Assembly: GCA_964471165.1 (NCBI GenBank)
Contig: CAYYEX010000002.1
Coordinates: 60,965-124,964 of the forward strand
Direction of reading: 5' to 3'
DNA: 64,000 nucleotides
Source of the DNA: an uncultured Candidatus Saccharibacteria bacterium
Lineage (GTDB): Bacteria > Patescibacteriota > Minisyncoccia > Phycocordibacterales > UBA2100
Below the pieces are notes generated by a model, which had not been told where the DNA came from, ran no database searches, and saw only the letters and a list, made by a program, of their open reading frames with translations. Both the position numbers and the translations under genes were made by a program. Numbering within the stretch: the first letter of the stretch is position 1; every line of letters begins with the position of its first letter. Shown here piece after piece: positions 23,225 through 42,490 of the stretch.

Positions 23225-24313
23225 TTAAAATGGATTTCGAGTTCCGTTACGAATCTCGAAGTGTAGATGATGCCCTGTCGGACCTGATACACGACCTGAG
23301 TTTCCGACCGTACCGATGAGTTGACCCTTCACTACGTGTTGACCAACACTCGCAACAACTGTCGTCTGGTGTGCGTATAGTGTCTGAGAACCATTGTCGT
23401 GTTGGATAACTACATAGCTTCCGTATCCGCCATTGTAGCCTCCTTGTTTTGCAACAATCACATCTCCTTCAGCTGCAGCGTAAATCGATGTCCCCATCGG
23501 GGCAGCCAAGTCAACGCCGTTATATCCGTGAATACCCTGCGTCCTTACGTAGCTCTTGAGCGGAGAGGAGTAGTAGCCAGCTGAAATGGTGGTCGTAACT
23601 TTCTTGCCGCCGACCGATATTTTCTTCGCCGGAGTCGGCGCTGGAGCGGTAATTTCACCGTTCGGAATGATGAGCTCGGTCCCAACCGCGAGGGTGCCGT
23701 CTTCTATGCTGTTGTAGTTGACGATTTCGGTCACGTCTCCGTCGAACTTCTTGGCAACCGATGCAAGGGTGTCACCCTTTCGGATTGTGTATTTCACTCC
23801 GGTAACCGGAAGAATGGTCAGAACTTGCCCCGCCTTTAGCTTGCTTCCCTTTGTCAGGTCGTTTGCCCAAAGGATCGTGCTTGGCGTTACTTCGAACAAT
23901 TCAGCAATCCCCGAAACCGTGTCTCCCTCGCGGACCACGTAGGTGCTGATAGTTGAGTTCTTCGGTCGTGAGTATGAACCTGACGGACCGTCGTCAGAGA
24001 CGAGTGCAGAATCATCGATAATAGTTATGTCTCCTCCGCCCGTGTCCTGACCCGGGTTTAAAGTTGCTTTTGGAAGCGGCATGGTCTGGCTGTTTCCAGC
24101 ACCGGAGACACTTTCCGCCTCCGCAACGTTGCCATGTATTGAATTACTGACAGCAGAAATGATGTCAGCGAAGATTCCTGCCCGTGCAGTAGAGGGGAGC
24201 AGTGCACCGATGATTATCATCATAGAAATCAACGATGCCGCCGCCTGCGCGGATTTGAATTTGCGGTATGTCCGCTTCGGCTTTTTAGCCAAAGAATCCT
24301 TATTTTGAGCCAA
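23225..24313 (-). CDS. LysM-domain M23 family metallo-endopeptidase (peptidoglycan hydrolase)
   Basis: two LysM repeats (YVVREGDTVSGIAELF.., YTIRKGDTLASVAKKF..) and C-terminal HHLHFEIR M23 motif. Confidence 0.8.
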   Translation of the reverse strand: MAQNKDSLAKKPKRTYRKFKSAQAAASLISMMIIIGALLPSTARAGIFADIISAVSNSIHGNVAEAESVSGAGNSQTMPLPKATLNPGQDTGGGDITIIDDSALVSDDGPSGSYSRPKNSTISTYVVREGDTVSGIAELFEVTPSTILWANDLTKGSKLKAGQVLTILPVTGVKYTIRKGDTLASVAKKFDGDVTEIVNYNSIEDGTLAVGTELIIPNGEITAPAPTPAKKISVGGKKVTTTISAGYYSSPLKSYVRTQGIHGYNGVDLAAPMGTSIYAAAEGDVIVAKQGGYNGGYGSYVVIQHDNGSQTLYAHQTTVVASVGQHVVKGQLIGTVGNSGRVSGPTGHHLHFEIRNGTRNPF

Positions 24314-26617: not shown

Positions 26618-27499
26618 ATGAGCCGCACCGGAGCCAAATTAGGCCAGCACTTCCTCATTCATTCGTGGGCAGCACGAGCGCTCGCGCACGCTGTGCCGTT
26701 GCGTGAAGGGGAGCGATATCTTGAGATTGGTCCTGGAAAGGGAATCCTCACCCGTGAACTACTTACTCTGGGGCCCGTTGTGGCGGTTGAGAAGGACCCT
26801 GAACTCGTGGTGCGCCTACGCGAGACATTTGCCGAGGAAATTGGCACCGGCAAGTTCAGACTCCTCGAAGGGGACGTCCGCGACGTCGTAGTCGAGCCTG
26901 AGAAAACGACGCCGGATGCGAGCCGCGGAGAAAGCGACACACGAGTCGTATCTAGACATACGGCGAGTGTGACGCTGAGGCTCGCGAGCGGAGCAGACGG
27001 TGTTGTTTTGTCTGGCGAATATGTGGTCGCTGCAAATATTCCGTATTACATCACCGGAGAAATTATTCGACAGTTTTTGACAGCTGCACGTCAGCCACGC
27101 GCACTCGCGCTCCTTGTGCAGAAAGAAGTTGCACAACGAGTGACGAGTAAGAAGGAAAGCATTCTTTCACTCTCTGTGAAAGCGTACGGCAAGGCACACA
27201 TCGCTGAAAAAGTCTCAAAGAAACATTTCTCCCCTCCGCCAAAAGTGGATTCGGCCATTCTCGTAATCGAAGACGTTACAAAAGATTTCTTCAACACGAT
27301 TTCGGAGAATGACTTCTTTCGTGTTGTGCATGCAGGGTTTGCATCAAAGCGAAAGTTTGTGTCAAACAATCTCGCCGTTGTATTTGGAAAAGAAAAAACC
27401 CTCGCTGCACTTGCACTCTCCGGCATTCCGGAAAAAGCACGCGCGGAAAATATTGGGGTAGAGCAGTGGAAGGCAATCACGAGGGCGCTTGTTGGGTGA
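26618..27499 (+). CDS. rsmA: 16S rRNA (adenine1518/1519-N6)-dimethyltransferase
   Basis: LGQHFL...YLEIGPGKGILTREL SAM-binding motif; NIPY motif (ANIPYYIT). Confidence 0.8.
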   Translation: MSRTGAKLGQHFLIHSWAARALAHAVPLREGERYLEIGPGKGILTRELLTLGPVVAVEKDPELVVRLRETFAEEIGTGKFRLLEGDVRDVVVEPEKTTPDASRGESDTRVVSRHTASVTLRLASGADGVVLSGEYVVAANIPYYITGEIIRQFLTAARQPRALALLVQKEVAQRVTSKKESILSLSVKAYGKAHIAEKVSKKHFSPPPKVDSAILVIEDVTKDFFNTISENDFFRVVHAGFASKRKFVSNNLAVVFGKEKTLAALALSGIPEKARAENIGVEQWKAITRALVG

Positions 27500-27622: not shown

Positions 27623-27649
27623 AAAAAGGATGCGCAGGCATCCTTTTTC
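27623..27649. terminator. bidirectional intrinsic terminator AAAAAGGATGC-gcag-GCATCCTTTTT
   Basis: perfect hairpin flanked by A-run and T-run between convergent genes. Confidence 0.75.
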
Positions 27650-27989
27650 ATTGACTACTCCCCATCATCGTAATGGAGATTCCAGCGTAGACGATAATCG
27701 GTACGATAGAGACGAGGCAGTAGTATGGAGCACCATACAGGCCCAGTAGGTATTGTCCGGTATGCGCCGGTGGACCGAATGGATACGTTACGGTTGACGG
27801 CGTCCAGATGTAAATACCACCCACCGGCGGGCCGACCGTGGTCCAAATCGCCTGGTTGTAGCAGAAAATAATCTGCGTAATAGGGCCGCCGAACGGATTC
27901 GTTTGCGCAACGGCAGCGGTCGGTGCCAAAAGAAGGAGTACACCCGCGAGCATTCCTGCGATTGTGCGCATACGTACAGTATACGACAT
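27648..27989 (-). CDS. small exported protein, VirB2/TrbC-pilin-like candidate
   Basis: signal peptide MSYTVRMRTIAGMLAGVLLLLAPTAAVAQ then about 85 aa with two hydrophobic segments and two Cys; start uncertain (27989 or 27971). Confidence 0.4.
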   Translation of the reverse strand: MSYTVRMRTIAGMLAGVLLLLAPTAAVAQTNPFGGPITQIIFCYNQAIWTTVGPPVGGIYIWTPSTVTYPFGPPAHTGQYLLGLYGAPYYCLVSIVPIIVYAGISITMMGSSQ

Positions 27990-28020
27990 TGATGGACACG
28001 GGTGCGTTATACTTTGAATA

Positions 28021-28890
28021 ATGAAGCACCCGGTGTTCCTGACGCTTTCCGTCGCGGTCATCTTTGTACTCGTTGGCTTGTATTTTATTGAACGTCAGCG
28101 TGCCGTCACCCCGAATGGAGCAAGTGCATCGTGGGAAACTGTCGGGGGATACATCGAGCCCACCGACTCGATTTCTGAGCAACCAACACAAGCACAACCG
28201 CTAGTTGAGACCGATAATAACCCGGAGACTCTCGTGATTCCTGTCGCAACAACATCGGCGACAAAGAAGCCCGCAAACGCGCCTGCAAAAGATGATGGTG
28301 TGTTTGACTACAACGCAATGCTCGCACAACTGCAGCATGAAACTACGTCGAACGCTTCTGCACAGGCAGATAAAACATTTGAAAAATTGATGGGTGCCTT
28401 TTCGTTCGCCCCTGCTATCGCAGCCCCGGCACAAAAAGTGAAGACGCCCGAGCAACAGGCTCTCTATATATACGGCAACGAAATCGGCTCGCGAATTAAG
28501 GGTTTCGCCGCCGTGAACCCAAATATGGCTCAAACACTCACTAATCAGATTAACCACCGCACCGAACCCTCCGCTGGAGTCCCCGTACGTAACCTTGGCA
28601 CCCGCTATATTGCGCTCGGAGAGAGTATTCTTGCAATCCAAAATGTTCCGCCCTCGGTCGAATCTGCCCACCATACGCTCGGAGAATCCTATCTTCATCT
28701 TGGTGAGGCGCTCAGCCGCATACCTGATGCAACCGAAGACCAGGCATTTATTGCTGCTATTACCACATACAACAACAAGGCCGACTCATACACGCGAGCG
28801 TTCGTCGGCATGGTTACACTGTTTTCAGCACTCAATGTCACATTCGAAGAAACTGACCCTGGTTCCGTTTTTAGCTTCCGTCATAACTGA
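28021..28890 (+). CDS. hypothetical membrane-anchored protein (paralog of the next gene)
   Basis: N-terminal TM; C-terminal motif ...ITTYNNKADSYTRAF... matched by ...LLRTYNEKEQGIYDSF... in 28926-29783. Confidence 0.5.
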   Translation: MKHPVFLTLSVAVIFVLVGLYFIERQRAVTPNGASASWETVGGYIEPTDSISEQPTQAQPLVETDNNPETLVIPVATTSATKKPANAPAKDDGVFDYNAMLAQLQHETTSNASAQADKTFEKLMGAFSFAPAIAAPAQKVKTPEQQALYIYGNEIGSRIKGFAAVNPNMAQTLTNQINHRTEPSAGVPVRNLGTRYIALGESILAIQNVPPSVESAHHTLGESYLHLGEALSRIPDATEDQAFIAAITTYNNKADSYTRAFVGMVTLFSALNVTFEETDPGSVFSFRHN

Positions 28891-28925
28891 CAGATATCCC
28901 ATTTTTTCCCGAGATTGAGCCACGA

Positions 28926-29783
28926 TTGCACAAATCGCCGAGGTATACTTTTAGTGTGCAGAAATTACGCGCGATACTCGGCGGCTCTTCTCCTATTGCG
29001 ATGACCGCTCTCGTTTCCGTTCTCGTGCTTGGCGGTGTTACGACGGCGCGCGTTGTAGCAACCATACGCCCCCCAGTTTCACCCCCTGTTGTTGCGGCCG
29101 CAGTGGTAGATACCACGAATGCCGATGAGAGTGCAGATTGGCAGCAGCAAATGCTGCTCCTTGGCCAGACGACCGAGACCGACGCGAGTGCAGCGACATC
29201 GACCGACCATCTCGCGCTCATCGGACCGATGGTAATGGGCGAGATTTTTGGCACCTATGACTCAATCCGTGCAAGTGGTAACTACACACAAACAGATTTG
29301 CGCGCAGCAGCAGAAAAAATTGGCTCGTATATGAAAGCAGCAGTGGCCTACGAAGCGTTCGAGATTACAGACTTTGCAACAGATGCTGATGCCTCAAGTG
29401 AGCGTGTGCGCACATACCGCGCAGAATTGCAATCGGCGCTCGAGCCACTCGCCTCTATTCCTGGAGCTGAATATGAAATCTATGGACGCTATGTGGAAAC
29501 AAGCGATTCTAAATACCTTGAGCAACTGAGAGATGCTGCAAACAAGTACCGCTCAAGTGCGGCGAGTGCCTCCTTGCTCACCGTCCCCCGCGATGCGGTC
29601 AATTATCACAGAGACTTGCTAAACTCGCTGCGCGCATTCGCCTCCGTTCTCGACGGTCTCGCCGGTCACGCCGACGACCCGTATGCATCAATTGCACTGC
29701 TGCGCACATACAACGAAAAAGAGCAGGGTATTTACGACTCGTTCAACCGCATGCGTTCCTACTACGCGAAAAAAGAGCTATGA
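28926..29783 (+). CDS. hypothetical membrane-anchored protein (paralog of the previous gene)
   Basis: N-terminal TM; shared C-terminal motif with 28021-28890. Confidence 0.5.
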   Translation: MHKSPRYTFSVQKLRAILGGSSPIAMTALVSVLVLGGVTTARVVATIRPPVSPPVVAAAVVDTTNADESADWQQQMLLLGQTTETDASAATSTDHLALIGPMVMGEIFGTYDSIRASGNYTQTDLRAAAEKIGSYMKAAVAYEAFEITDFATDADASSERVRTYRAELQSALEPLASIPGAEYEIYGRYVETSDSKYLEQLRDAANKYRSSAASASLLTVPRDAVNYHRDLLNSLRAFASVLDGLAGHADDPYASIALLRTYNEKEQGIYDSFNRMRSYYAKKEL

Positions 29784-31342
29784 AAAAGAAATTTCTCATA
29801 GCAATCACTATTCTGTGCACCGGGCTCTCACCGATAGTAGCTTTTTCAGCGGCTGACGACGTTTTTACGTGCAGCAAAAATGGACAGGCGACGGGAAGTG
29901 CTGGCTCTCAAGTTCCACTTGGTGGTCCGTACGTCCCCGTTGCCGACTATGCAGTAGAGCTCAACACCGGGTTACTGGTTTACAAAGAATGCGTACTGCG
30001 TGTGCTAGCGACCACTAAACGAAAAGCAGCTCTCGCAAGTGTCGACAACCAAACACTGACCCGATTCAACGCATATCCATCACGCGAGCTTGGAAAGGAA
30101 GAGGTGCAATTGAGCGATAAGACCGTCCTGCGGTATCTCAAAAATGACAGCCTTTCGAACTTTAGTCCTACCGTGCAAGGGAAAGTAAAACAAGCAATTG
30201 CTCGTGGCTACAGTGCCTCGCGCGATCCTCGGACGGCATTTATTTGTGAATACACGGGTGACCTCAACGCTGTGTATAGTGGTGTTCCGATTGGAAATTA
30301 CTGGGACGGATTTAATGCAGTCGCCGATGACCCTGCATGCAGCGTCCTCTCCGCATCAGACTTAGGCTACGGCGCGGTCATTGGGCAGGGTCAATACGAA
30401 GTCTATAAAAACATGCAGCGTTACAACGCCGGGCAAGGTGTATACGACGTCTGGCACGAAGATGAGAACGGTTTCCATATTACAGATACACCTGGGCAAG
30501 TTGTACTTCAACAGGGGATTCAGTCGGTGCAGTCCTCGTATAAACAGGCACAAGAAGCCGACGACATTGGAGAGATGGTCGACGGACTCTACCTTGGTGT
30601 TACCAACCAGGTACTCACACCAGGAACTTCCGGAACATCGGGTGGCCTTTCCGCTATTACACAGGCACTCGGTGGAGCACTCTCATACATGGCACAGGTT
30701 GCGCAAGGTGCGGGCACAGCCTACACAGAAGCAAATGCAAACGTCACGGTCGGTATTCTGCAGGGTGCGCTTGCACTTGAGCAGCAGTACAACGCGGTTA
30801 TGTCTTCGACCGCATCTATGTTCACACAAACAAATGCGTCGCTTCGTACAAAAGAAGCACAATGCTTCACGTCGATTGCTGGGGCAATCTGTCAGTCGGG
30901 AACTATTTCTGGCTCTACATGCACGGGAGTATCAGGCGGCACGCTTACCATCGCCACCTCCACTGCATTCTCGCAAAAGGTAATCGATGCGAACGTGCGC
31001 ACTCTCGCCACTGCAACGGTTACAAACCTCAACGCCTCGAATCAAATCATTACCCGTCTAAACGCAATGATTACGGCGCTGCGCGCGAACCCTACAGAAG
31101 CAGCACAAACTGCGGCGCTCGCGCAACTAGCTGCGCTCAACCCACATAATGCACAACAAAAGAACGATGCACAGACGAACCAGCAAGCACTCACGCAAAG
31201 TATGACCACGCTTCTCTCAACGACATTCGATGGTTGGGCTGCAGCCGAGCCTGTTGGGTGGTGCAACATCGAAGTTCAATCGAACAAAGATGCCTGGACC
31301 TCGTGCTGGAGCGGAAACGCTGCCGCATGTCCAACGCCTTAA
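29780..31342 (+). CDS. large secreted Cys-containing hypothetical protein
   Basis: signal peptide MKKKFLIAITILCTGLSPIVAFSA; 520 aa; about 14 Cys; Gln/Thr/Ala-rich C-terminal half. Confidence 0.5.
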   Translation: MKKKFLIAITILCTGLSPIVAFSAADDVFTCSKNGQATGSAGSQVPLGGPYVPVADYAVELNTGLLVYKECVLRVLATTKRKAALASVDNQTLTRFNAYPSRELGKEEVQLSDKTVLRYLKNDSLSNFSPTVQGKVKQAIARGYSASRDPRTAFICEYTGDLNAVYSGVPIGNYWDGFNAVADDPACSVLSASDLGYGAVIGQGQYEVYKNMQRYNAGQGVYDVWHEDENGFHITDTPGQVVLQQGIQSVQSSYKQAQEADDIGEMVDGLYLGVTNQVLTPGTSGTSGGLSAITQALGGALSYMAQVAQGAGTAYTEANANVTVGILQGALALEQQYNAVMSSTASMFTQTNASLRTKEAQCFTSIAGAICQSGTISGSTCTGVSGGTLTIATSTAFSQKVIDANVRTLATATVTNLNASNQIITRLNAMITALRANPTEAAQTAALAQLAALNPHNAQQKNDAQTNQQALTQSMTTLLSTTFDGWAAAEPVGWCNIEVQSNKDAWTSCWSGNAAACPTP

Positions 31343-31346
31343 CAAT

Positions 31347-33929
31347 ATGACTATTTCTCTCTCACGAATCCAAAGTTTCTGCATCGCACTCCTCCTGGGA
31401 CTCGTGCTTATGCTCGGCAGTGCCTCGATTGCAAGTGCCCAAGCAAAGCACATGTCGGGGCAGGACTACCTCAACAAAGTGAATGAGCAGCTCGTCGCTG
31501 CGGGCAGACCGACTATGCAGGGTAGCAGTGCGACAGCGCTGGTGGGAATTATCAATAGCATGGGTGACACCGAGTTTGGGTATCTACAGAGAGCTAACGA
31601 CACTCGTACCGCAAATGGCGCAACATGGCTCACGACTGGTGGAGATATTACAAGGGTCACCGCAGACGCCACTCTCGACCCGGAAACAGGGGTGGTGGAC
31701 CCCACAAAACTCGAAAAAGTCGCAGCCGAAAACGCCATCCAAAAGCCTGCGGGCTGCTCGATATTAAAGTGGAACTTTGAGGACTGTATCGCCGGCCCTA
31801 TCGCACGCTTCGCAAGTCGCATGATGCTCTCGCTCGGTGGAAACATTCTGCGCCTTTCGGGGTCTATCTTCGACTTCGGCGTGAATCACGTCATTATCGA
31901 TTTCAAGGCAACGCTGAGCGGCCCATTGATGACCATCATCGATGGGGGGTGGACATTCTTCCGCGATATCGCAAATATTTTTATAATCGGCATCTTCACG
32001 TTCATTGCAATCAGCCTCATTCTCGGACTCAAAGAGTACGGGCAAAAGAAGCTTGTTGCTCGCGTGCTCATTATTGCGGTGTTAATGAACTTCAGTCTTT
32101 TGTTTACGAAAATCATCATTGATTCATCGAATTTTATTGCCTACGCCATCTATAGTCAGACAGCAGGAGCAGGTGCCCCCACATTCAGTATTGCGGATAA
32201 AGTGCTCTCTCCGCTCCACGTAACAGGTGTGTGGGATACCTCTGCGCTCGCTCAGCAAGTGTACGGTCAGGAAAACAGCGGGGGAGCGCTTAAGGCCTTC
32301 GGGTTCGGACTCTTTGGATTCATTATATTAGTCCTCTTGGCCGCTGTTATTTTCTACGGCGCGTTTCTCATCATTGCGCGGGCCATCATGTTCGTGGTGC
32401 TCATGCTCACCGCTCCGATTGCATACGCCACCTATCTTGCACCGAACTTCGAAGCGAGTGAGTTCGGGTGGAGCAACTGGTGGAAGTCACTCATCAACAA
32501 CGCCGCCTTCGCGCCACTACTCATGATATTTCTTTCGATTGCGATTCTTATCATGCAAACTGCCTCCACTTCGGTCAATCCGGCCGACACACTGGGCGCT
32601 CTCGGCACCGACCCGACTAAACAGGTGCTCGCCGACGGCTGGAAGGTGCTCTTCGTCTACATTCTTGGCACAGGTCTCCTGTTCATCTCGTTCCGTCTCT
32701 CAAGCTCGCTCGCAGGTTCAATTAGCGGCATAAAAGTAGGTCAAATGATTGCTGGAGTACCACTCGCTCTTGGTACCCGCGGTGCGGCGCGCCTCGCTCA
32801 GCTTTCGGCGGGCCGTGCGTCCCAAGCGCTTGCGAACAACGCGGACGATCGTATGAAAAAGGCGCGCTTGCATGCAATTGCAACGCAGGACCAAAAAGAT
32901 TGGGACAAGGTGGAGCGCATCCGCAAGCAAAAAGCTGCATTCGACAAGGGTGCACAGAGCAGCTTCAACCCGCTTAATACCGCACTTGGAAAAGCGCTCG
33001 CAGGAAGTGCCGGTCTCAAGGGCGTCCTCGCGGGAGAGAAGAAAGGCAGCTTTGCTGGTTCGATGGAAGACCGTGCTAAGGCAGCGGAGGCAAAGGCAAA
33101 GGCAATGCAGCTCACCGAAGCGGACAAGAAAGAAATGCGCAAACAGGCTTCAGAGGAAATCCAGGCGGCAAACAATACGAAACTCGATGAGGCAGCAAAG
33201 AACCTCGAGACCGCAAAACTCGAACTTGAAAAGGCAAAGACCGAGCAGGCCGCTTCGCAAAACCCTGAACTCGTCCGTGAGGTTGAGGAGGCAGTTACAA
33301 AGAACGCAATTGCACGTGCCCCAGATATGGATAAGGCACAAACCGAAGTCCATGTCATTGAACAAAGAAAGAGCGAAATCGTTGGCGGTCACGACAGTGC
33401 AATTAACGAAATGGTGAAAAAGACGGAGGAACTCTCGGGTCAAGCACGCGAGAATCATGTACGCCAACTCGAGGCCCGCCGCGCTGAGCGACAAACCGCA
33501 ATCAAACAACAAGACGCCCATATCGCTGACGCTCGAGAGCGAATCACCACACTCAAAAAAGAAATCGAGGCTCCACGTACGGAACTGCTTAAGCGTCAGG
33601 AAAAAGCGGCCCGTGAACTTGCAGAGCGTAATGCAGGAGTTCAATCAGCAGAAGGAACCCTTGCAACTGCCAAGACAAAGGCGGAGGCCGTTCCGAACGC
33701 AGCCGAGGTACAAAAGCTTGGAAACGCTAAGATAAAAACGGCGGAAGAGGCAGTTGCAGGGGGAGTACAGGGCCTTTCGAGGAAGGAGGCCGGTATCCTC
33801 GGTGGGCATGCAGGAGAACACGTGATTCAACATCACATGGACGCAACGTTCAAAAAGAAGACCGGGGCGGAGAGTATCGCAGAGGCGGTGAAGGGCATCC
33901 AGGCAGCGGCAAAGAAAGAGGAGTCGTAG
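31347..33929 (+). CDS. VirB6/TrbL-like polytopic membrane protein with long C-terminal K/E/A-rich coiled-coil tail
   Basis: signal peptide; about 250-aa extracytoplasmic region; at least 6 TM helices (FIIGIFTFIAISLILGL, LIIAVLMNFSLLF, FGLFGFIILVLLAAVIFYGAFLIIARAIMFVVLMLTAPIAY ...); about 400-aa charged C-terminus; start placed at ATG 31347 rather than the overlapping 31230. Confidence 0.4.
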   Translation: MTISLSRIQSFCIALLLGLVLMLGSASIASAQAKHMSGQDYLNKVNEQLVAAGRPTMQGSSATALVGIINSMGDTEFGYLQRANDTRTANGATWLTTGGDITRVTADATLDPETGVVDPTKLEKVAAENAIQKPAGCSILKWNFEDCIAGPIARFASRMMLSLGGNILRLSGSIFDFGVNHVIIDFKATLSGPLMTIIDGGWTFFRDIANIFIIGIFTFIAISLILGLKEYGQKKLVARVLIIAVLMNFSLLFTKIIIDSSNFIAYAIYSQTAGAGAPTFSIADKVLSPLHVTGVWDTSALAQQVYGQENSGGALKAFGFGLFGFIILVLLAAVIFYGAFLIIARAIMFVVLMLTAPIAYATYLAPNFEASEFGWSNWWKSLINNAAFAPLLMIFLSIAILIMQTASTSVNPADTLGALGTDPTKQVLADGWKVLFVYILGTGLLFISFRLSSSLAGSISGIKVGQMIAGVPLALGTRGAARLAQLSAGRASQALANNADDRMKKARLHAIATQDQKDWDKVERIRKQKAAFDKGAQSSFNPLNTALGKALAGSAGLKGVLAGEKKGSFAGSMEDRAKAAEAKAKAMQLTEADKKEMRKQASEEIQAANNTKLDEAAKNLETAKLELEKAKTEQAASQNPELVREVEEAVTKNAIARAPDMDKAQTEVHVIEQRKSEIVGGHDSAINEMVKKTEELSGQARENHVRQLEARRAERQTAIKQQDAHIADARERITTLKKEIEAPRTELLKRQEKAARELAERNAGVQSAEGTLATAKTKAEAVPNAAEVQKLGNAKIKTAEEAVAGGVQGLSRKEAGILGGHAGEHVIQHHMDATFKKKTGAESIAEAVKGIQAAAKKEES

Positions 33930-33941
33930 CACAATCACTCT

Positions 33942-34532
33942 ATGGAACCAGACACAAACAACATCGACTTGAATAAGGCGCTCGCAGAACGTTTTGGAAC
34001 GCTACCGAAAGTCGTTCAAGACGCGATTACATCGGCCGACGTGCAAAAACACATGCGCGACCTGGCAGAAAGTAACAAACTCCATGTCGATCAGTACCAG
34101 TTACTCGAAAACAACGTCATGCTCACGCTGCTCGGTTTCCAGCAGGTTGCAGAGCTCACGTCTCACCTCCAAAAAGACCTCGGTGTAACAGAGGAGGTGG
34201 CAATTCAGCTCGCCTCCTCTGTTTCCGAAATCGTGTTTAGTCCGATTCGGGGGGAAATGGAGCGCGCACTAAGCCATCCGAGCGCTGTGCAAGAAGCAAT
34301 TTCGGATGTTGAGGCTGTGCGTGCGCAGGAAATTGACGCTGCTGCCACACCCGCTGCTCCCGAGTCCACACCAACAACTCCTGCTGCAGCAACTCCCGTC
34401 CTACCTGCAACTCCACCCGCACCTGCCCCAGAAGAAAAGTCAGTTCGTGCACAAATTGCGCCGACGTACGCCACAACCGCAAGCCACGAACGCAAAACAA
34501 TTACCGGGGACCCCTATCGCGAGCAACTGTAA
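33942..34532 (+). CDS. hypothetical protein with Pro/Ala/Thr-rich C-terminus
   Basis: 196-aa ORF in the cluster operon; no motif recognised. Confidence 0.4.
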   Translation: MEPDTNNIDLNKALAERFGTLPKVVQDAITSADVQKHMRDLAESNKLHVDQYQLLENNVMLTLLGFQQVAELTSHLQKDLGVTEEVAIQLASSVSEIVFSPIRGEMERALSHPSAVQEAISDVEAVRAQEIDAAATPAAPESTPTTPAAATPVLPATPPAPAPEEKSVRAQIAPTYATTASHERKTITGDPYREQL

Positions 34533-34658
34533 AGCACTCGAACATCGGATTGCCAAGAAAATCGACGAGCTCTTAGAGAATCCCGCCACAATTCTATAAA
34601 CATATTGGAGTCGTTTGACACGTCGGTCTGTATATCTCACGGGGTATACTGATACTGC

Positions 34659-35165
34659 ATGCAGTTCCAAGTACCTCAATTCATTGAGGTCGAAGATAAG
34701 ATCTTCGGACCGTTCACATTCAAACAGTTCGTCTATATTGCTGGCGGACTTGGTCTCTCATACCTTGTATGGCGATTATTGCCTCATTTAATCGCGGCAC
34801 CGCTCCTTATCGGGGTAATGGGGTTTGCGGTTGCGCTCGCGTTTATGCAATACAATGGCCGCCCCTTCATGATTGCGCTTGAAACATCTTTTTTCTATCT
34901 CGTTCATACAAAACTCTATCTTTGGAACAACAAGACAAAAAAGCGCATGAACGATTCGCGACAAAACCCCACACTACCCCAGGAAAACCTGTATGTTCCG
35001 AAACTCTCGGATAGTCGCCTACACGAACTTGCCTGGAGCCTCGACATTAAGGAGCGAATTGCTGCAGGGGTTGGCAACGAACGAGACCGTTCCGTTGTAG
35101 ACAGGCAGGAAGCGACGCTTGGTATCCGCACGCCACGCGAGGCACTGAAATCGCTCACACAATAA
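34659..35165 (+). CDS. small membrane protein, VirB3/PrgI-like candidate
   Basis: 168 aa; TM hairpin FVYIAGGLGLSYLVWRLLPHLIAAPLLIGVMGFAVALAF; positioned directly upstream of the VirB4 gene as VirB3 homologues are. Confidence 0.35.
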   Translation: MQFQVPQFIEVEDKIFGPFTFKQFVYIAGGLGLSYLVWRLLPHLIAAPLLIGVMGFAVALAFMQYNGRPFMIALETSFFYLVHTKLYLWNNKTKKRMNDSRQNPTLPQENLYVPKLSDSRLHELAWSLDIKERIAAGVGNERDRSVVDRQEATLGIRTPREALKSLTQ

Positions 35166-35169
35166 TTAT

Positions 35170-35829
35170 ATGCCGCAAGCAGGATCAAATACCCGCAACG
35201 ACAATAAATCGACACAGGAGTTTGTGCCGATTAAAGAAGTGCGCGACGGTATTGTGGTAATGAAAGACAATGGCTTGCGTGCGATACTGCTCGCCTCATC
35301 GATTAACTTTGCGCTGAAATCCGAAGATGAGCAGACAGCGTTCATCGTGCAGTTCCAGAACTTTCTGAACTCGCTCGACTTTTCCTGCCAGATATTCGTA
35401 CAGTCGCGTCAGCTCGATATTCGCCCGTATGTCGCAACACTCGAAGAAGCTTACAAAGGTCAACTCGACGACCTCATGCGTATCCAAATACGCGAATATA
35501 TTGAGTTCATTCGGAGCTTCACCGAGGCGGCAAATATTATGACGAAGAATTTCTTTGTCGTGGTCCCGTACACACCAGCGGTGATTCAAACAGGGAAGGG
35601 GTCTTCGTTCAATCCGTTCAGTAAAAAAAAGGCCAACGCCGCAGAGGAGAACCGAACATTCGAAGAACAGGCAACGCAGCTTGAACAACGAATCTCGATA
35701 GTGCAACAAGGCCTTGTGCGCACGGGTGTACGCACCGTGCAACTCGGCACTGAAGAGGCAATTGAGTTGCTCTATAAGATGTTCAATCCAGGTGAAGACT
35801 CAAAACCGATGTCACTTTCACAACAGTAA
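35170..35829 (+). CDS. virB4: VirB4/TraE-type ATPase, N-terminal domain (separated from the ATPase domain by one in-frame TAA)
   Basis: FVPIKEVRDGIVVMKDNGLRAILLASSINFALKSEDEQTAFIVQFQNFLNSL matches the conserved N-terminal domain of conjugative VirB4 ATPases; same reading frame as 35833-37839. Confidence 0.6.
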   Translation: MPQAGSNTRNDNKSTQEFVPIKEVRDGIVVMKDNGLRAILLASSINFALKSEDEQTAFIVQFQNFLNSLDFSCQIFVQSRQLDIRPYVATLEEAYKGQLDDLMRIQIREYIEFIRSFTEAANIMTKNFFVVVPYTPAVIQTGKGSSFNPFSKKKANAAEENRTFEEQATQLEQRISIVQQGLVRTGVRTVQLGTEEAIELLYKMFNPGEDSKPMSLSQQ

Positions 35830-35832
35830 TCT

Positions 35833-37839
35833 ATGGGACTTTTCGAATCAATTTTCAATAAGAAGCCAGAGCAGGGGCCCAATGTGCTCCCGGTTCTTCC
35901 AGACGAAATCTACCAAACTGGCGTACTGGACCTGCAAGACGTAATTGCGCCGCACGCACTCAAAATAAGTTCTCACGAACTTGATTTGGGAGAGAAAATT
36001 GCGCGAACGTTCTTCGTTATTTCGTACCCACGATTCCTCACAACTGGGTGGTTTGCACCAATCATTAACATGGACAAGGTTATCGACATTTCTATCTTCA
36101 TCCATCCGATGGATACGAACGAAATGCTCCGTAAGTTTCAGAAGAAGGTTGCCGAGGTCCAGAGCCAGATTTCTACTCGAGAAGAGAAGGGAATGGTGCG
36201 CGACCCGATGCTCGACACCGCGTATTCCGACCTTGAACAGCTGCGTGATTCGCTCCAGCAAGCGCAAGAAAAAATATTCGATGTGGGTCTGTATATGACA
36301 ATCTATGGTGCCACCCGTGAAGAGGTCGACAAAACCGAGTCCGAGGTTCGCTCGATTCTTGAAAGTCGTCTTGTGTACATTCGCCCAGCACTCTTTCAAC
36401 AGGAGCAGGGATTCCGCTCAGTGCTTCCAATTTCTACCGATGAGCTCGATGTGCACACAAAGCTAAACTCCGCGCCACTTTCATCAATCTTTCCGTTCAT
36501 TTCGTTCGACCTCACCTCTGACAGGGGAATTCTCTACGGAATCAATCGACACAACTCCTCACTCATTCTCTTCGACCGTTTTTCTCTCGAAAACTACAAT
36601 TCGGTAACGTTTGCTAAATCTGGTGCGGGTAAGTCCTACACGACGAAGCTTGAGATTCTTCGCTCACTCATGTTCGATACCGAAGTAATTGTCATCGACC
36701 CTGAACGAGAATATGAATACCTTGCAGAGACTGTCGGTGGTCGCTACTTCAATATTTCGCTCTCGTCCGAACACCATATCAATCCGTTCGACCTTCCCAT
36801 CCCGAGAGAAGACGAGGCACCGTCTGATGTGCTTCGTAACAACATCATCACGCTCGTCGGACTGTTTCGCATCATGCTCGGTGGCCTCACACCAGAAGAA
36901 GATGCGGTAATTGACCGAGCTATTACGGAAACGTACGCCCTCAAAGACATTACTGCTGACGCGAATTTTGCTGCGGTTGAGCCACCGCTTCTCTCAGACT
37001 TCGAACTCGTGCTTTCCGGCATGGAAGGCTCCGAATCTCTCGTGCAGCGACTGTCTAAGTACACAAAGGGAACATGGTCGGGCTTTATGAATCGTCCGAC
37101 CAACGTGGATATGAACAAGAAGCTTGTTGTTTTCTCAGTTCGCGACATGGAAGACGACTTGAAGCCAGTCGCGATGTACATTATTACGCACCACATTTGG
37201 AACACAGTGCGTAAAGAACTTCGCAAGCGACTCCTCATCATCGACGAGGCGTGGTGGATGATGCGCTCTGAAGACACGGCATCGTTCCTGTTCTCAATCG
37301 CAAAACGTGGTCGTAAATACTTCCTCGGTATCTCCACCATCACACAAGACGTGTCCGACTTTCTCAACTCACCGTACGGTGTGCCGATGATTACGAACTC
37401 ATCTATTCAAATGTTGCTTCGACAATCGCCGACGTCGGTTGACCTTGTGCAGCAAACATTCAAACTCTCCGACGAAGAAAAATATCTCTTGCTTGAGTCC
37501 GATGTGGGAGAAGGTATCTTCTTTGCCGGCCTCAAGCACGTGGCAATCAAGGTGATTGCCTCCTACACAGAGGATCAAATCATCACATCAGACCCGTCTC
37601 AGATTCTCGCAATAAAGAAAGCTAAACAAGATCTCCAGGTAGCAAGCGATGCTCGTACCGCCGCGGTTGAACAACAGCGTGCTGCCATCGCTGCACCAAC
37701 CCCCGTTTCTGCGGCGGTCTCCGCAGCCCTCGAAGCAGAAACCCCCGTTGCGGCTGTTGCTGAGATACCCGCTCCTGTTGCAGTCGCTCCAGCAACGCCT
37801 CCTGTAGCTGAACCCCCGCTCGCTCCTGGAGTTGTATGA
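35833..37839 (+). CDS. virB4: VirB4/TraE-type ATPase, C-terminal ATPase domain
   Basis: Walker A AKSGAGKSYTTK; VIVIDPEREY; Walker B LLIIDEAWWM; 668 aa. Confidence 0.8.
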   Translation: MGLFESIFNKKPEQGPNVLPVLPDEIYQTGVLDLQDVIAPHALKISSHELDLGEKIARTFFVISYPRFLTTGWFAPIINMDKVIDISIFIHPMDTNEMLRKFQKKVAEVQSQISTREEKGMVRDPMLDTAYSDLEQLRDSLQQAQEKIFDVGLYMTIYGATREEVDKTESEVRSILESRLVYIRPALFQQEQGFRSVLPISTDELDVHTKLNSAPLSSIFPFISFDLTSDRGILYGINRHNSSLILFDRFSLENYNSVTFAKSGAGKSYTTKLEILRSLMFDTEVIVIDPEREYEYLAETVGGRYFNISLSSEHHINPFDLPIPREDEAPSDVLRNNIITLVGLFRIMLGGLTPEEDAVIDRAITETYALKDITADANFAAVEPPLLSDFELVLSGMEGSESLVQRLSKYTKGTWSGFMNRPTNVDMNKKLVVFSVRDMEDDLKPVAMYIITHHIWNTVRKELRKRLLIIDEAWWMMRSEDTASFLFSIAKRGRKYFLGISTITQDVSDFLNSPYGVPMITNSSIQMLLRQSPTSVDLVQQTFKLSDEEKYLLLESDVGEGIFFAGLKHVAIKVIASYTEDQIITSDPSQILAIKKAKQDLQVASDARTAAVEQQRAAIAAPTPVSAAVSAALEAETPVAAVAEIPAPVAVAPATPPVAEPPLAPGVV

Positions 37840-38837
37840 AATATCTCGCTGCGTTTCTCGTGCTTGTTGTCGCCACACCTGTACTCGCGCTCGATATTGG
37901 TCCCTCTCTCTATATAGCCGTTGCCCCGCAGTATCCAGCCCCCGCTCAGCCCGTTACGCTCACCATACAAAATCCGCTCGTCGACCTTTCGGAGCGAGAA
38001 ATTACGTGGAGAAATAATGGTGTTGTTGTGCTCACGGGGGAGGGTGAGACCATCTATCGAACTACTGCACCGAACGCAGGAGAGCGCATCGACATGACTG
38101 TTAGTGTTGCCGGCCTTGAAGAAATGGCCTCAATTTCAATTGCACCTTCTTCGGTGGATCTCTTGTGGGAATCCAATTCGTTTGCCCCCGGGCTATATCG
38201 TGGGCGACACCTCCCCAGTCGAGGCTCCGTGCTCACACTCCACGCCCTCCCGCATCTCACACAAAAAGGCGTCGAACTCCCCGCGTCACAACTTGTTTTT
38301 ACATGGAAGCAGGAGGGGCAGGTTGTTATGTCCGGAAAGGGAAAAAGTTCATTCTCTATTCCCGTCGCTGAGTTTGTCGATACAAGTACTATTTCGGTCA
38401 GCGTGACAACTTCGGATAAAACTATTGGCGCGGAGCGCTCTGTTGTGATTAACGCCGCAGAGCCAGTTGTGCGTCTGTACTTTGACCACCCGCTCTTTGG
38501 TGTCATGTATCATAATGCACTCACCGCCCGCTCAATCGTATCTGAGACCGAAGTATCATTCGCAGCAATTCCGTATTTTGCCCAGGCCACAGGAGCCAAC
38601 GATAAACTTTTTTCGTACATTTGGCGCGTGAATAGAACTACTATCGAACCAAATAGCGAACAACCCAATACAATTACCATAAATGCTGGCCCGGCAGGAG
38701 GTCCGGCTCAGATTGAGGTGTCACTCACACACACAAAAAACTTTCAACTTGATGCACGCGGCACATGGAATGTAACGTTCGGTTCAATCGCCGGTGGTAG
38801 TAGCGGCGTAGTGGGGGATCCATTCACAGGACAATAA
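37836..38837 (+). CDS. hypothetical secreted protein
   Basis: signal peptide MKYLAAFLVLVVATPVLA; 333 aa. Confidence 0.45.
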   Translation: MKYLAAFLVLVVATPVLALDIGPSLYIAVAPQYPAPAQPVTLTIQNPLVDLSEREITWRNNGVVVLTGEGETIYRTTAPNAGERIDMTVSVAGLEEMASISIAPSSVDLLWESNSFAPGLYRGRHLPSRGSVLTLHALPHLTQKGVELPASQLVFTWKQEGQVVMSGKGKSSFSIPVAEFVDTSTISVSVTTSDKTIGAERSVVINAAEPVVRLYFDHPLFGVMYHNALTARSIVSETEVSFAAIPYFAQATGANDKLFSYIWRVNRTTIEPNSEQPNTITINAGPAGGPAQIEVSLTHTKNFQLDARGTWNVTFGSIAGGSSGVVGDPFTGQ

Positions 38838-38839
38838 TC

Positions 38840-40069
38840 ATGAATAAAATTATCCAATTCGTTACAGCCGCACTTCTTGTAGCTATTGTTGGTGGCTTTG
38901 GCGGTTGGTATTTTTTTATTAAAAACAAAACGGCCGAAACAGACAATCTTATTGCGGGGCGTGGTGAGGATGCCGCATCTTTTACTGGTGAAGTCGGCAG
39001 CACCTATCAAAACATAATCACGGACTCCTCGGAGACTACCCCGGCCTCTACAGGACAGCGTGCGCCGCGTTTGTGGCATGTAACGAAATCCCCCATTGCA
39101 GGATTTGGATTCGGTCCGGGAGGACTGACCGTGTACATCGCTGAGCGAGCAACTGGAAATATTTTGCGTGCCGCCCCTGATACAAGTTCAATCCAACGCC
39201 TCACCAACACACTCGTACCGAAGGTCCGCGAAGCACTCTTTAGTCGCTCGGGGGATGTTATCTTACGCTCGACGAATGATGCAGGCTCAGTTACCACTTT
39301 TGCTGCCACTATCGCTACCACTACTGTTATCACATCCACCTCCACACCAAACACACTCGAGGGTACATATCTTCCGCAGAATATTGTGGCGATTGACGCA
39401 CCAAACAATCAACCAACATCGAAAGGCATCTTCTTTATGACCCGCCTGCCTGAAGGAGGATCTGTTGGGGTATCATCGCTTTGGAAGGGTACCTCGATTA
39501 AAAAAATGGTTTCCTTGCCGCTGTACCAATGGCGAGCGCAGGCACTCTCGGACGGTCGGGTAGTACTCACACAAAATGCAGCAGACGATGTTGTCGGGTA
39601 CTCATTTATAGTGAGTCCTGCAGGTGTTATGAAGCCGCTTGTTGGCAATCTCCCCGGCCTCACACTTACCTATCACGATACGGGAGATGCGTTTCTTTAC
39701 GGAGTTGCCGGCGCAGGCACGCTGTCTTTGTATGTAAAAGCAGGAACGTCAAACGCCGTTAAACTGCCGATTGCAACCACTGCAGACAAATGTGTTTGGG
39801 CCCCCGGCGTGGGACTCATTGCATATTGCGCGGTACCAACTTCAGCACCCGCATCCCCGTACCTGACGAACTGGTACGGAGGGGCAACACATACAATCGA
39901 TGTCTGGTGGAAAATTGAGGCAGCTGAGGGTACCGCAGAACGTTTCTTTGTCCCCGACACGCGAACACAGTACGACGTAGAAGATCCCGCAACTGATGAG
40001 ACCGGTTCTTACCTCGCCTGGAGAAACGCTGCGGATAAGTCTCTGTGGCTGCTTAGAATCAGTGAATAA
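38840..40069 (+). CDS. hypothetical membrane-anchored periplasmic protein
   Basis: N-terminal TM IIQFVTAALLVAIVGGFGGWYFF; 409 aa. Confidence 0.45.
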   Translation: MNKIIQFVTAALLVAIVGGFGGWYFFIKNKTAETDNLIAGRGEDAASFTGEVGSTYQNIITDSSETTPASTGQRAPRLWHVTKSPIAGFGFGPGGLTVYIAERATGNILRAAPDTSSIQRLTNTLVPKVREALFSRSGDVILRSTNDAGSVTTFAATIATTTVITSTSTPNTLEGTYLPQNIVAIDAPNNQPTSKGIFFMTRLPEGGSVGVSSLWKGTSIKKMVSLPLYQWRAQALSDGRVVLTQNAADDVVGYSFIVSPAGVMKPLVGNLPGLTLTYHDTGDAFLYGVAGAGTLSLYVKAGTSNAVKLPIATTADKCVWAPGVGLIAYCAVPTSAPASPYLTNWYGGATHTIDVWWKIEAAEGTAERFFVPDTRTQYDVEDPATDETGSYLAWRNAADKSLWLLRISE

Positions 40070-40076
40070 TGTATCT

Positions 40077-40637
40077 ATGACAAAACGAAAACACCTTATT
40101 GTCTCCAGCTGCGCCTTTGCACTCTCTTTTGCTCTCCCTGCACTCGTTCTTGCCGCCGAAGGATTCGTTCCACTGACAAAAGATGCCGACTTTCAAAAGA
40201 TTTTCGGCGTGGGTAGCAATGCCGGCTCGAATCCTCAGGACCTGAGCACGTTCATCAGCGGCGCATTTAAGGTTACTCTTTCTATCGGAGCAATTCTCGC
40301 AGTGCTTCGAATTGCGTATGCAGGGTATCAGTACATGTCTTCTGACGCGTGGGGAGAAAAATCACACGCAAAAGAAATACTTGGCGATGTAACAATCGGT
40401 ATTTTATTGCTTCTGAGTGTTTGGCTCATCCTTAACCAAATCAACCCAAACATTCTGCAGCTCAAAATAAGTGGTGTGAATAGCTCCGGAGGATCATCGG
40501 GCGCTTCAAGTGCGACAACAAATACAGGCACGACTCAAGCTCGAACTCAAAATCCAACAAACGTAGTACGAAATACAGAAACGGGGGACTGCACCTACTA
40601 CGATGCAATGGGGGTAGCGTATTCAGCGAGCTGCTAG
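40077..40637 (+). CDS. VirB2/TrbC-like pilin candidate
   Basis: signal peptide; two hydrophobic helices (FISGAFKVTLSIGAILAVLRIAYAGY and VTIGILLLLSVWLILNQI) in TrbC-like arrangement; Ser/Gly/Thr-rich C-tail; start at ATG 40077. Confidence 0.5.
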   Translation: MTKRKHLIVSSCAFALSFALPALVLAAEGFVPLTKDADFQKIFGVGSNAGSNPQDLSTFISGAFKVTLSIGAILAVLRIAYAGYQYMSSDAWGEKSHAKEILGDVTIGILLLLSVWLILNQINPNILQLKISGVNSSGGSSGASSATTNTGTTQARTQNPTNVVRNTETGDCTYYDAMGVAYSASC

Positions 40638-41101
40638 GCCTCGGCAGCTGCGTACTTGATGACAACGCGTCGGTTCCGCCCCTCACCCAAGGACTCTGTT
40701 TTTACATTCGGTTCGTCTTGTAGGGTAGTGTGAACAATAAGACGTTCGTATGCACTCATTGGCGAAAGCTCCACATCGTATTGAAAACTGCGAGCTCGTT
40801 CTGCCATCATCAGCGCCTTGGTCTGTAAATCTTTAATTTGTTTTACGCGGTAGTCGTTTACGTCGATGAGGAAATGGAGATCCTGTGCGCCTTCCGTTGG
40901 CACGCGTTTCTCGGCAATCTTTTTTACCAACATATCAATCGCATGTATCGTATCGCCGTGACCACCGATAAGGGCGCGCGCCTCCGATGTTTGTATTGAA
41001 AAAATCATCTGCCCGGCAACTTCGGACCGTGTAACGACGGCATCGGTAACCCCCATCGACGCAAGTAGTTCTCCAAGAATGGTTTCAACCATGTCGTGCA
41101 T
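40634..41101 (-). CDS. jag: Jag/KhpB-like R3H/KH-domain RNA-binding protein
   Basis: GVTDAVVTRSEVAGQMIFSIQTSEARALIGGHGDTIHAIDMLVKK (KH-like) and C-terminal R3H-like region; downstream of yidC as usual. Confidence 0.7.
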   Translation of the reverse strand: MHDMVETILGELLASMGVTDAVVTRSEVAGQMIFSIQTSEARALIGGHGDTIHAIDMLVKKIAEKRVPTEGAQDLHFLIDVNDYRVKQIKDLQTKALMMAERARSFQYDVELSPMSAYERLIVHTTLQDEPNVKTESLGEGRNRRVVIKYAAAEA

Positions 41102-41240
41102 GGAGGGCACTATACCCTATGAGATAAACTCGTAGCAACGTTACGACGGTACCGCGACGTGTCGTAATACTTGAATTGGTTCTAAACCAGCATCTGTATC
41201 TCACGGGGCAGCTTAACGCGCTGCTCCAAAATACATACCC

Positions 41241-41975
41241 CTACATCGGAATCTTCCCGTGGAAACGTCGCCCCACATAAAACTCCTGCCCAATCATAAA
41301 GAGGTTACTCGTTACCCAGTAGAGTGGTGCCGCGGCTACAACAAAGTACGACACAACCCCAATAACACCGGGGAGTACATAGCGGGCTTGGACATCGAAG
41401 CTTTTTGCCATCTCTTCGGAGAATGACGCCTCGGTTGGTGTAATCGTACCCTTGGGACCCATGGAAAGCCGCGTGTATATCGCCTGTGTTACTGCAACCA
41501 AGACTGCAAGAACAATGCTGTGGCTTCCCATATCAATAAGCCCGAGGAAGCGCATGTTTACCAAATCTGGTACCGCAACAAACGAATAGAGCATTTCAGG
41601 GTTTACCAGTGGGAAGCCGCCCTGCGCAAATACCCAGTAAAGACCAAGCAAGATGGGGAGTTGGAGCAAGAGGAGAAGGAACCCCGAAAACGGATTTACT
41701 TTGCGCTCACGGTAGAGTGCAAACATTGCCTTACCCTGTTCTTCGGGCTTGTCTTTATACTTCTTCTTTAACTCTTCTATCTCTGGAGCAACGGCTTTCA
41801 TTGCCATCTGCGACTTGATTGCCTTGCGTGAGAGAGGGAACAGGATGAAACGCACAATAATGGTCACAATAATGACCGCGATACCGATATCGTGCGTTGG
41901 CACGATATCCACAAAATAAACGAGGGCGTTATATATCGGAAGATAGATGACTGCATGAAACGCGGCTCCAATCAT
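41241..41975 (-). CDS. yidC: membrane protein insertase YidC (short form)
   Basis: 244 aa; five TM helices; ...GFLLLLLQLPILLGLY... YidC/Oxa1 signature; between rnpA and jag. Confidence 0.8.
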   Translation of the reverse strand: MIGAAFHAVIYLPIYNALVYFVDIVPTHDIGIAVIIVTIIVRFILFPLSRKAIKSQMAMKAVAPEIEELKKKYKDKPEEQGKAMFALYRERKVNPFSGFLLLLLQLPILLGLYWVFAQGGFPLVNPEMLYSFVAVPDLVNMRFLGLIDMGSHSIVLAVLVAVTQAIYTRLSMGPKGTITPTEASFSEEMAKSFDVQARYVLPGVIGVVSYFVVAAAPLYWVTSNLFMIGQEFYVGRRFHGKIPM

Positions 41976-41999: not shown

Positions 42000-42326
42000 C
42001 TACTTCACGCTACGCAATCGCTCGATGAGCTCTGCTACATCTGCTCGTATTACCGCGTATGGAGCGTCAACGGCCTGTCTCTTTGCCGTGAGAACAAGTG
42101 ACATTCCGACAGGCAGAGTGACTCCGTGCAGAGCAGTGCGCATACGGCGTTTTATCCCATTTCGCACCACGGCCTTACTTGAGACCTTTTTTGAAACGAC
42201 GCACGCAACCTTGGATGTGGTGCCTTCATGTTTTGTGCGGGATAGCGAAAAAAGGCTTGAAATAAGCCTTTTATCAGGACTCAGCCGTCGAATTTCCGCC
42301 CCCGTAAGCCGGTGTTTCTTTGGCAT
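42000..42326 (-). CDS. rnpA: RNase P protein component
   Basis: 108 aa; basic; RNR-like motif region; sits between rpmH and yidC. Confidence 0.75.
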   Translation of the reverse strand: MPKKHRLTGAEIRRLSPDKRLISSLFSLSRTKHEGTTSKVACVVSKKVSSKAVVRNGIKRRMRTALHGVTLPVGMSLVLTAKRQAVDAPYAVIRADVAELIERLRSVK

Positions 42327-42349: not shown

Positions 42350-42490
42350 TTATACGGTCAGCTTCGCGCGGCCCTTGCGGCGGCGGCGAGTGAGAACGGA
42401 TACGCCTTTCTTGCTCTTGGAGCGGATACGGAATCCGTGAGTTGCCAATCGCTTTTTCTTTTTCGGCTGGTATGTTCGCTTGGTCGACAT
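42350..42490 (-). CDS. rpmH: 50S ribosomal protein L34
   Basis: hand translation of the minus strand: [46 protein letters not shown] (46 aa; too short for the ORF track). Confidence 0.9.

Follow-up and report, generated by a model that had tools for sequence, protein, structure and literature searches.

Perhaps a quarter of all bacterial diversity belongs to the Patescibacteria, which live attached to other microbes. Here, we describe a gene cluster that encodes a type IV secretion system (T4SS) in a 64-kb stretch of a patescibacterial contig (CAYYEX010000002.1, positions 60,965 to 124,964), referred to as the window, and compare it with the closest systems on record. In a survey of 3,035 genomes (Quiñonero-Coronel et al. 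2025, Microb Genom), the VirB4 proteins of Patescibacteria formed a monophyletic clade nested in the mating-pair formation (MPF) class MPF-FATA (PMC12102498). The virB4 genes in this clade are accompanied by TrsD, PrgI/VirB3, VirB6 and PF18895 pilins, relaxases are almost absent and type IV coupling proteins (T4CPs) are mostly remote; the Paceibacteria cluster is found close to dnaA, dnaN, rnpA, rpmH and ksgA, for which a gene-dosage idea was offered as a suggestion (PMC12102498). In Southlakia epibionticum, the origin-proximal T4SS and its pilins are essential for epibiotic growth, and the system comes with neither a relaxase nor a coupling protein (Wang et al. 2023, Cell; PMC10633639). A 2025 review highlights these systems and proposes a role as pilus or conduit (PMC12857230).

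Work published in 2023-2025 had, thus, already covered the system, the absence of a relaxase, the pilins and the proximity to the origin. Because the same reading had been published for Patescibacteria, the interpretation given in a preliminary description of the window, which was made from the sequence alone, is a correct re-discovery. What is added here is a corrected parts list for Paceibacteria, fold-level hints for the accessory proteins and a testable link to a tube seen by cryo-electron tomography (cryo-ET), together with the conservation of the accessory proteins, a variable pilin tail and a conservation gradient across the components.

With a probability of about 0.85, the cluster is a Patescibacteria-type chromosomal T4SS in a Paceibacteria (Kaiserbacteria-like) genome that is vertically inherited, is derived from MPF-FATA systems and has lost the relaxase and the coupling protein at the locus. 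This reading is carried by the identities of the parts, their conservation, their fixed place in the chromosome and the lack of conjugation genes at the locus. The cluster consists of 11 packed, co-oriented genes, g2 to g12 (28021-40637, + strand), with a divergent gene, g1, beside it (Table 1). An open reading frame (ORF) check recovered all twelve ORFs of the region at the same coordinates as in the preliminary description. Intergenic gaps range from -4 to +12 nt, except at the g2-g3 junction (35 nt) and the g6-g7 junction (126 nt). The genes encode a split VirB4, a PrgI/VirB3 protein, a VirB6-like protein, one VirB2-type pilin and six accessory envelope or cytoplasmic proteins. The G+C content of the cluster (0.50-0.53) is the same as that of its flanks, and the remainder of the window is occupied by housekeeping genes (PNPase, UvrD, KsgA, PolA, RuvABC, PBP1, DnaA/DnaN and tRNAs). 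The preliminary description had read the cluster as an MPF-FATA-like T4SS or pilus that is fixed in the chromosome, does not conjugate and could act at the interface with a host; synteny, G+C content, a VirB4 of the CD1110 type and the absence of a relaxase, T4CP or integrase at the locus all agree with this.

Table 1. Features of the window. Positions are those of the window; presence is given as loci with the gene/loci covering its position.
Feature	Position	Strand	Description	Basis	Presence
g1	27648..27971	-	Small secreted protein, Gly/Pro/Trp-rich, signal peptide, two invariant Cys	Alignment	27/54
g2	28021..28890	+	Bitopic membrane protein	N-terminal transmembrane (TM) helix (residues 1-25), low-complexity linker, extracellular helical domain	53/55 (g2/g3 family)
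g3	28926..29783	+	Paralogue of g2	TM anchor, disordered linker, extracellular four-helix bundle	53/55 (g2/g3 family)
g4	29780..31342	+	Secreted, Cys-rich, all-helical protein	11 Cys, 8 invariant or nearly so	57/58
g5	31347..33929	+	Extended VirB6-like polytopic protein, 860 aa	Topology, TrbL, CD3337/EF1877	59/60
g6	33942..34532	+	Small soluble helical protein, presumably cytoplasmic, Ala/Pro-rich tail	No TM segment	64/68
g7	34659..35165	+	PrgI/VirB3-like membrane protein	PF12666 PrgI	70/72
g8	35170..35829	+	TrsD-like, VirB4 N-domain equivalent as its own gene	NCBIfam profiles	76/76
g9	35833..37839	+	VirB4 ATPase (CD1110/MPF-FATA type), Ala/Pro-rich C-terminal tail	P-loop_TraG, CD1110, 4AG5	80/80
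g10	37836..38837	+	Secreted protein, three immunoglobulin (Ig)-like repeats	Signal peptide; threefold W..NG..G.G motif	70/71
g11	38840..40069	+	N-terminally TM-anchored protein, extracellular TolB-like beta-propeller	TM helix (residues 1-23)	62/62
g12	40077..40637	+	VirB2-type pilin	PF18895, two-helix topology	59/62
ksgA/rsmA	26618..27499	+	Conserved left border, upstream of the cassette in 50 loci	RrnaAD 3.3e-40	
jag	40634-41110	-		Pfam/ORF translation	
yidC	41241-41975	-		Pfam/ORF translation	
rnpA	42000-42326	-		Pfam/ORF translation	
rpmH	42350-42490	-		Pfam/ORF translation	
dnaA	42768-44126	+		Pfam/ORF translation	
dnaN	44364-45461	+		Pfam/ORF translation	
Tyrosine recombinase	7698-8606		XerC/D-like		
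LysM-M23 peptidase	23225-24313	-			
T2SSE-family ATPase	54883-56574	-	563 aa	MshEN domain	
ORF, 330 aa	26-1018	+		No Pfam match at E <= 1e-3	
ORF, 569 aa	16678-18387	+		No Pfam match at E <= 1e-3	
ORF, 209 aa	59574-60203	+		No Pfam match at E <= 1e-3	
ORF, 568 aa	60200-61906	+		No Pfam match at E <= 1e-3	

No essential difference was found between the locus in the window and the Patescibacteria T4SS clade of the survey (PMC12102498), with which it shares a VirB4 of probable FATA descent, TrsD, PrgI/VirB3, VirB6, a PF18895 pilin, the dnaA/ksgA setting and the lack of a relaxase or nearby T4CP. The system of S. epibionticum ML1 (SEML1_0005-0019) likewise includes VirB4 with a small protein upstream, PrgI, VirB6-like proteins that carry long extensions, an Ig-like protein that is exported, and PF18895 pilins; it is also origin-proximal, in that genome directly after dnaA-dnaN-recF, and also has no relaxase or coupling protein. 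However, only S. epibionticum has six tandem pilins, two VirB6-like genes, lysozyme and peptidase genes beside virB4 and an NTF2-like protein, whereas the locus in the window has one tailed pilin and one VirB6-like gene, encodes a TolB-like propeller along with the g2/g3/g4 module and includes no hydrolase gene within its operon. The conjugative MPF-FATA systems (CTn2/CD1110, pCF10 Prg, pGO1 Trs and pIP501) share VirB4 at the CD1110 level, PrgI and TrsD with this locus and, like it, have no outer-membrane core. The locus differs from them in having no relaxase, T4CP, recognisable oriT, PrgK/CwlT-type hydrolase, VirB8-like protein or PrgB-type adhesin and in not lying on a mobile element. It also includes a VirB2-type pilin, which Gram-positive systems do not have (PMC12102498; PMC12857230).

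Conservation of the cluster was assessed using 80 related loci, found by a scan of GTDB species genomes, ranked by VirB4 similarity (74-96 % identity) and named L001-L080. Orthologues were found among the ORFs of these relatives by tblastn and iterated hidden Markov models (HMMs), and presence is counted over the loci that cover the position of the gene. The order ksgA-[g2...g12]-jag-yidC-dnaA-dnaN is kept in 80 GTDB species belonging to several candidate orders. The same order in the same place in 80 species indicates that the cassette is passed on vertically rather than being an integrated conjugative element. The only rearrangement found, from g10-g11-g12 to g10-g12-g11, occurs in more distant Paceibacteria lineages (L022 and L027-L080). 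Accessory proteins that failed to accompany the VirB4 core in relatives had been named beforehand as an outcome that would speak against the interpretation; every component other than g1 was found in at least 94 % of covered loci.

The degree of conservation varies with the component. Across 40 matched loci, the median identity was 78 % for VirB4, compared to 55 % for DnaA, 40 % for DnaN, 45 % for YidC, 44 % for KsgA and 54 % for UvrD, and VirB4 was more conserved than DnaA in 37 of the 40. Ranking the loci by VirB4 similarity inflates this contrast somewhat, but cannot explain a gap of >20 points between VirB4 and DnaA. The exported or surface parts diverge, with median identities of 27-29 % for g5, g10 and g11 and 37 % for the pilin g12. 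Judged from these sequences, the pattern would fit an essential motor with a fast-evolving surface. As the system is essential in a cultured relative, the motor is more conserved than DnaA and the surface parts evolve fast, the locus matters biologically. Few envelope machines have been demonstrated to be indispensable for the epibiotic lifestyle; the T4SS is one of them, in one cultured relative.

The VirB4 ATPase, g9, matches P-loop_TraG in Pfam (4.5e-24) and conju_CD1110 in NCBIfam (367 bits, above the cut-off of 325 bits), and the nearest solved structure is that of the Thermoanaerobacter VirB4 (PDB 4AG5, 4.9e-41), while R388 TrwK is matched at 1.3e-7. The Walker A (AKSGAGKS at residue 261) and Walker B (LLIIDE at residue 467) motifs are intact. 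Orthologues in the 80 loci are 74-96 % identical, and there are thousands of homologues, the top ones 85-100 % identical and those that are named coming from Kaiserbacteria, Paceibacterota or Patescibacteria. The nearest plasmid homologues, from Actinobacteria and Firmicutes, are 28-36 % identical. The product of g8 matches only the N-terminal part of VirB4 profiles, namely positions 96-233 of VirB4_plasma (1.1e-10) and 2-117 of CD1110, and the match of g9 to CD1110 starts at profile position 181. Two genes thus encode VirB4 between them, consistent with the N-terminal domain plus ATPase domain reported in the preliminary description. A match of g8 to TrsD (1.8e-6) agrees with a precomputed PF26593 TraC-like match, and no match was found among PDB sequences. 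Its median identity in relatives is 64 %.

The preliminary description was also right to list a VirB3/PrgI-like protein, as g7 matches PF12666 (PrgI) at 1.9e-10 and 41.5 bits, well above the Pfam gathering threshold (GA) of 27. For g5, listed there as a VirB6/TrbL-like polytopic protein with a tail, the topology fits: an exported N-terminal domain is followed by about six hydrophobic segments and an A/E/K-rich cytoplasmic tail of about 390 amino acids (aa). The VirB6 identity is weak in g5 itself and is carried by its orthologues, 10 of 55 of which match TrbL (best 6.5e-7); sequence profiles gave no match of g5 to the solved VirB6/TrwI. We note that low-complexity tails end three of the cytoplasmic components, an A/E/K-rich one in g5 (33300-33929) and Ala/Pro-rich ones in g6 (34300-34532) and VirB4 (37620-37839).

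As had been claimed, the window encodes neither a relaxase nor a VirD4/TcpA coupling protein nor a VirB11, in domain scans of its ORFs of 150 aa or more. The only T2SSE-family ATPase in the window is 14 kb from the cluster and, because it is 563 aa long and includes an MshEN domain, it is of the PilB/GspE type and not a VirB11. The gene for this ATPase adjoins ruvB, upstream of polA, and other pilus-assembly domains were not found in the scanned window ORFs of 150 aa or more.

Two VirB2/TrbC-like pilins had been proposed, one at each end of the cluster, and only the one that closes it, g12, stands. In g12, a signal peptide is followed by two hydrophobic helices and, at the C terminus, by a Ser/Gly/Thr-rich tail of 63 aa with 2 Cys. 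It scores 26.3 bits against PF18895, just under the GA of 26.6, but, among 71 orthologues, 54 match PF18895 (E <= 1e-3) and 3 match TrbC. In the orthologues, the tail that follows the second helix is 1-358 aa long, with a median of about 100, and frequently contains paired cysteines; single ORFs orthologous to g12 also match Peptidase_S8, SLT or 3D domains. The variable tails and extra domains suggest that the pilin displays variable surface domains, serving as their anchor.

The minus-strand gene at the opposite end, g1, is not a pilin. Neither the window protein nor any of 28 family members matched a Pfam pilin (E <= 0.1), comparison with the g12 family using hhalign gave a probability of 0.1 %, and the architecture differs. 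Unrelated to g12, it encodes a small protein that is secreted and disulfide-bonded. The family to which it belongs consists of small secreted proteins, has no annotation and shows the motif FGG..C..N....GPP.GG.YIWTP....GQWLLG...PYYC....MMGSS. In three orthologues (L009, L010 and L015) it is fused to a C-terminal LTD (lamin-tail) domain. Whether g1 belongs to the system is doubtful: it is found in only half of the covered loci but, where present, is always located between ksgA and the T4SS operon.

Among the accessory proteins, g2 and g3 are paralogous membrane proteins, as had been proposed. They align over 185 columns in hhalign (99.65 %, E 3.6e-25), iterated HMMs started independently from each converge on the same 73 ORFs, and two copies are present in 18 of the loci. 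A VirB8-like (NTF2 fold) identity was considered for this pair and rejected; the bitopic topology fits, but the AlphaFold2 (AF2) model is a four-helix bundle. The description of g4 as a secreted Cys-rich protein, with 11 Cys, is borne out. As neither Foldseek nor sequence profiles found a match for g4, its reading as VirB5-like or as a tip-like component is a weak lead rather than a result. For g6, no family match was found in profile scans. The family profile of g10 matches the Ig-like domains of T4 Hoc (5.5e-5), and that of g11 matches 12 TolB structures (7.9e-5 to 2.6e-3); the g11 cysteine pair C318 and C330 is invariant. These two had been called secreted and membrane-anchored periplasmic proteins, respectively. 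The signal peptide and the TM helix agree, but periplasmic is a misnomer for a monoderm.

The homology of VirB4, PrgI and TrsD to proteins of Gram-positive conjugative elements, together with the presence of a tyrosine recombinase, might suggest an integrated conjugative element or its decaying remnant, with the relaxase and coupling protein just outside the window. However, the cassette is fixed in place and order in the 80 species and has core genes on both sides (ksgA and uvrD; jag, yidC and dnaA), and its VirB4 is under stronger purifying selection than DnaA. The recombinase, the only one of its type in the window, is XerC/D-like and is located 20 kb away among housekeeping genes. Phylum-wide, relaxases were found in only 103 of 3,035 genomes (PMC12102498). 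Rejected on grounds of synteny, with neither an adjacent integrase nor a shift in G+C content, this explanation is given next to no weight here. Because no relaxase or T4CP is present at the locus, a competence-like DNA importer analogous to the archaeal Ced system, supplying the cell with nucleotides or DNA that it cannot produce itself, was also considered. Patescibacteria lack nucleotide synthesis (PMC10633639), in the ABY1 class the T4SS adjoins comF, recG and radA (PMC12102498), and CedB is matched weakly, through a P-loop, at 2.6e-9 and well under the cut-off. However, that match spans only about 70 residues, the cluster includes no DNA-binding or DNA-translocating component and no competence genes are adjacent to it in the window. 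Moreover, in S. epibionticum, deletion of comEC ends competence and leaves the cells viable, whereas the T4SS is essential (PMC12857230). We consider a DNA importer improbable.

An effector exporter that works without a T4CP, with g4, g10 or g1 as possible Sec-exported cargo and the pilin as a short internal piston or stalk, carries more weight than either of these, though we still think it the less likely reading. Protein-secreting T4SSs of this kind exist; Bordetella Ptl and Brucella VirB work without a coupling protein or a relaxase (PMC12102498; PMC12857230). They differ from the locus in the window in being MPF-T systems of diderms that have VirB7/9/10 core complexes as well as VirB11, and homology is limited to VirB4, VirB3, VirB6 and VirB2. 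Sec signal peptides and conserved cysteines for disulfides occur in several proteins of the cluster, and protein export was suggested by Wang et al. (PMC10633639). However, profile scans found no recognisable toxin or enzyme domain in any cluster protein, and, rather than being variable cargo, the accessory proteins are conserved and look like structural modules (Ig repeats, propeller and helical bundles). This explanation overlaps the preferred reading, a fixed patescibacterial T4SS, and differs from it only in what passes through the apparatus.

If the preferred reading is correct, VirB4 (g9) and its separate N-domain (g8) would dock on a membrane platform made of g7 and g5, and ATP hydrolysis would pull the pilin g12 out of the membrane to form a short tube across the cell wall. 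The extracytoplasmic four-helix bundles of g2/g3, together with g4, g10 and g11, would probably scaffold the tube or touch the host. The apparatus could then be a contact-dependent conduit or an attachment organelle for episymbiosis, rather than for conjugation. Conjugative VirB2-type pili are reportedly about 8-9 nm wide. Circumstantial support comes from the Saccharibacterium Mycosynbacter amalyticus, in which cryo-ET revealed a tube that measures 8.6-9.0 nm in width and 61-70 nm in length, bears a density at its tip and leads from the epibiont's inner membrane into the host (PMC11880426). It is conceivable, though on balance we doubt it, that g12, a g4 tip, g10, g11 and g2/g3 build such a tip-barbed tube of about 9 nm, a VirB4-powered conduit that imports cytoplasmic material from the host. 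If so, a T4SS run as an importer would be the central feeding organ of the phylum.

Several points weigh against the reading of the cluster as a patescibacterial T4SS that builds a host interface. The genetic evidence comes from the Saccharibacterium S. epibionticum, and the cryo-ET tube was not assigned to a T4SS by its authors (PMC11880426). Remote VirD4/T4CP homologues are present in most Patescibacteria (PMC12102498), and the scan of the window covered 64 kb only. Within the cluster, neither a VirB8-like (NTF2) nor a VirB1-like component was found, and the VirB6 signal of g5 is sub-threshold (TrbL, E 0.033; CD3337/EF1877 mobilome membrane protein, 6e-5). In addition, the AF2 fold of g3 is a generic four-helix bundle and the resemblance of g4 to VirB5 is within the noise of helical bundles.

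The cluster lies beside jag, yidC, rnpA and rpmH and beyond them dnaA and dnaN, as described previously; Pfam matches and ORF translations agree on this setting. The genes g12 and jag are convergent and overlap by 4 nt. The cumulative GC-skew minimum is at 42-44 kb, and a perfect DnaA box is found at 42664, with near-perfect boxes at 44131 and 44256. Together, the gene context, skew minimum and DnaA boxes are consistent with a putative origin of replication here. A high gene dosage in replicating cells, which the preliminary description drew from this position, may follow and is likewise no more than a suggestion in the survey (PMC12102498). The 12.6-kb operon runs toward this putative origin and is, therefore, head-on to the leftward replication fork, as it is in all 80 loci. 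Judging by the strands that Table S1 of Wang et al. (PMC10633639) gives for the genes, this orientation seems to be shared by SEML1_0004-0013 of S. epibionticum. A head-on orientation is unusual for an essential and presumably well-expressed operon. A scan of the operon for promoters and terminators gave counts not above those of shuffled sequence and was uninformative, the 126-nt gap between g6 and g7 contains no convincing promoter or structure, and an Rfam scan found four tRNAs only, with no RNA element within the cluster.

The LysM-M23 peptidase gene of the window is 11.5 kb upstream of virB4, and its product may be a VirB1-like wall hydrolase of the system. In two distant loci, one of them from Wolfebacteria, a LysM-M23 peptidase gene is located directly upstream of the PrgI-TrsD-VirB4 core (L075:85-1041 and L078:7519-8478), and in four others one is present at the far upstream edge of the locus.

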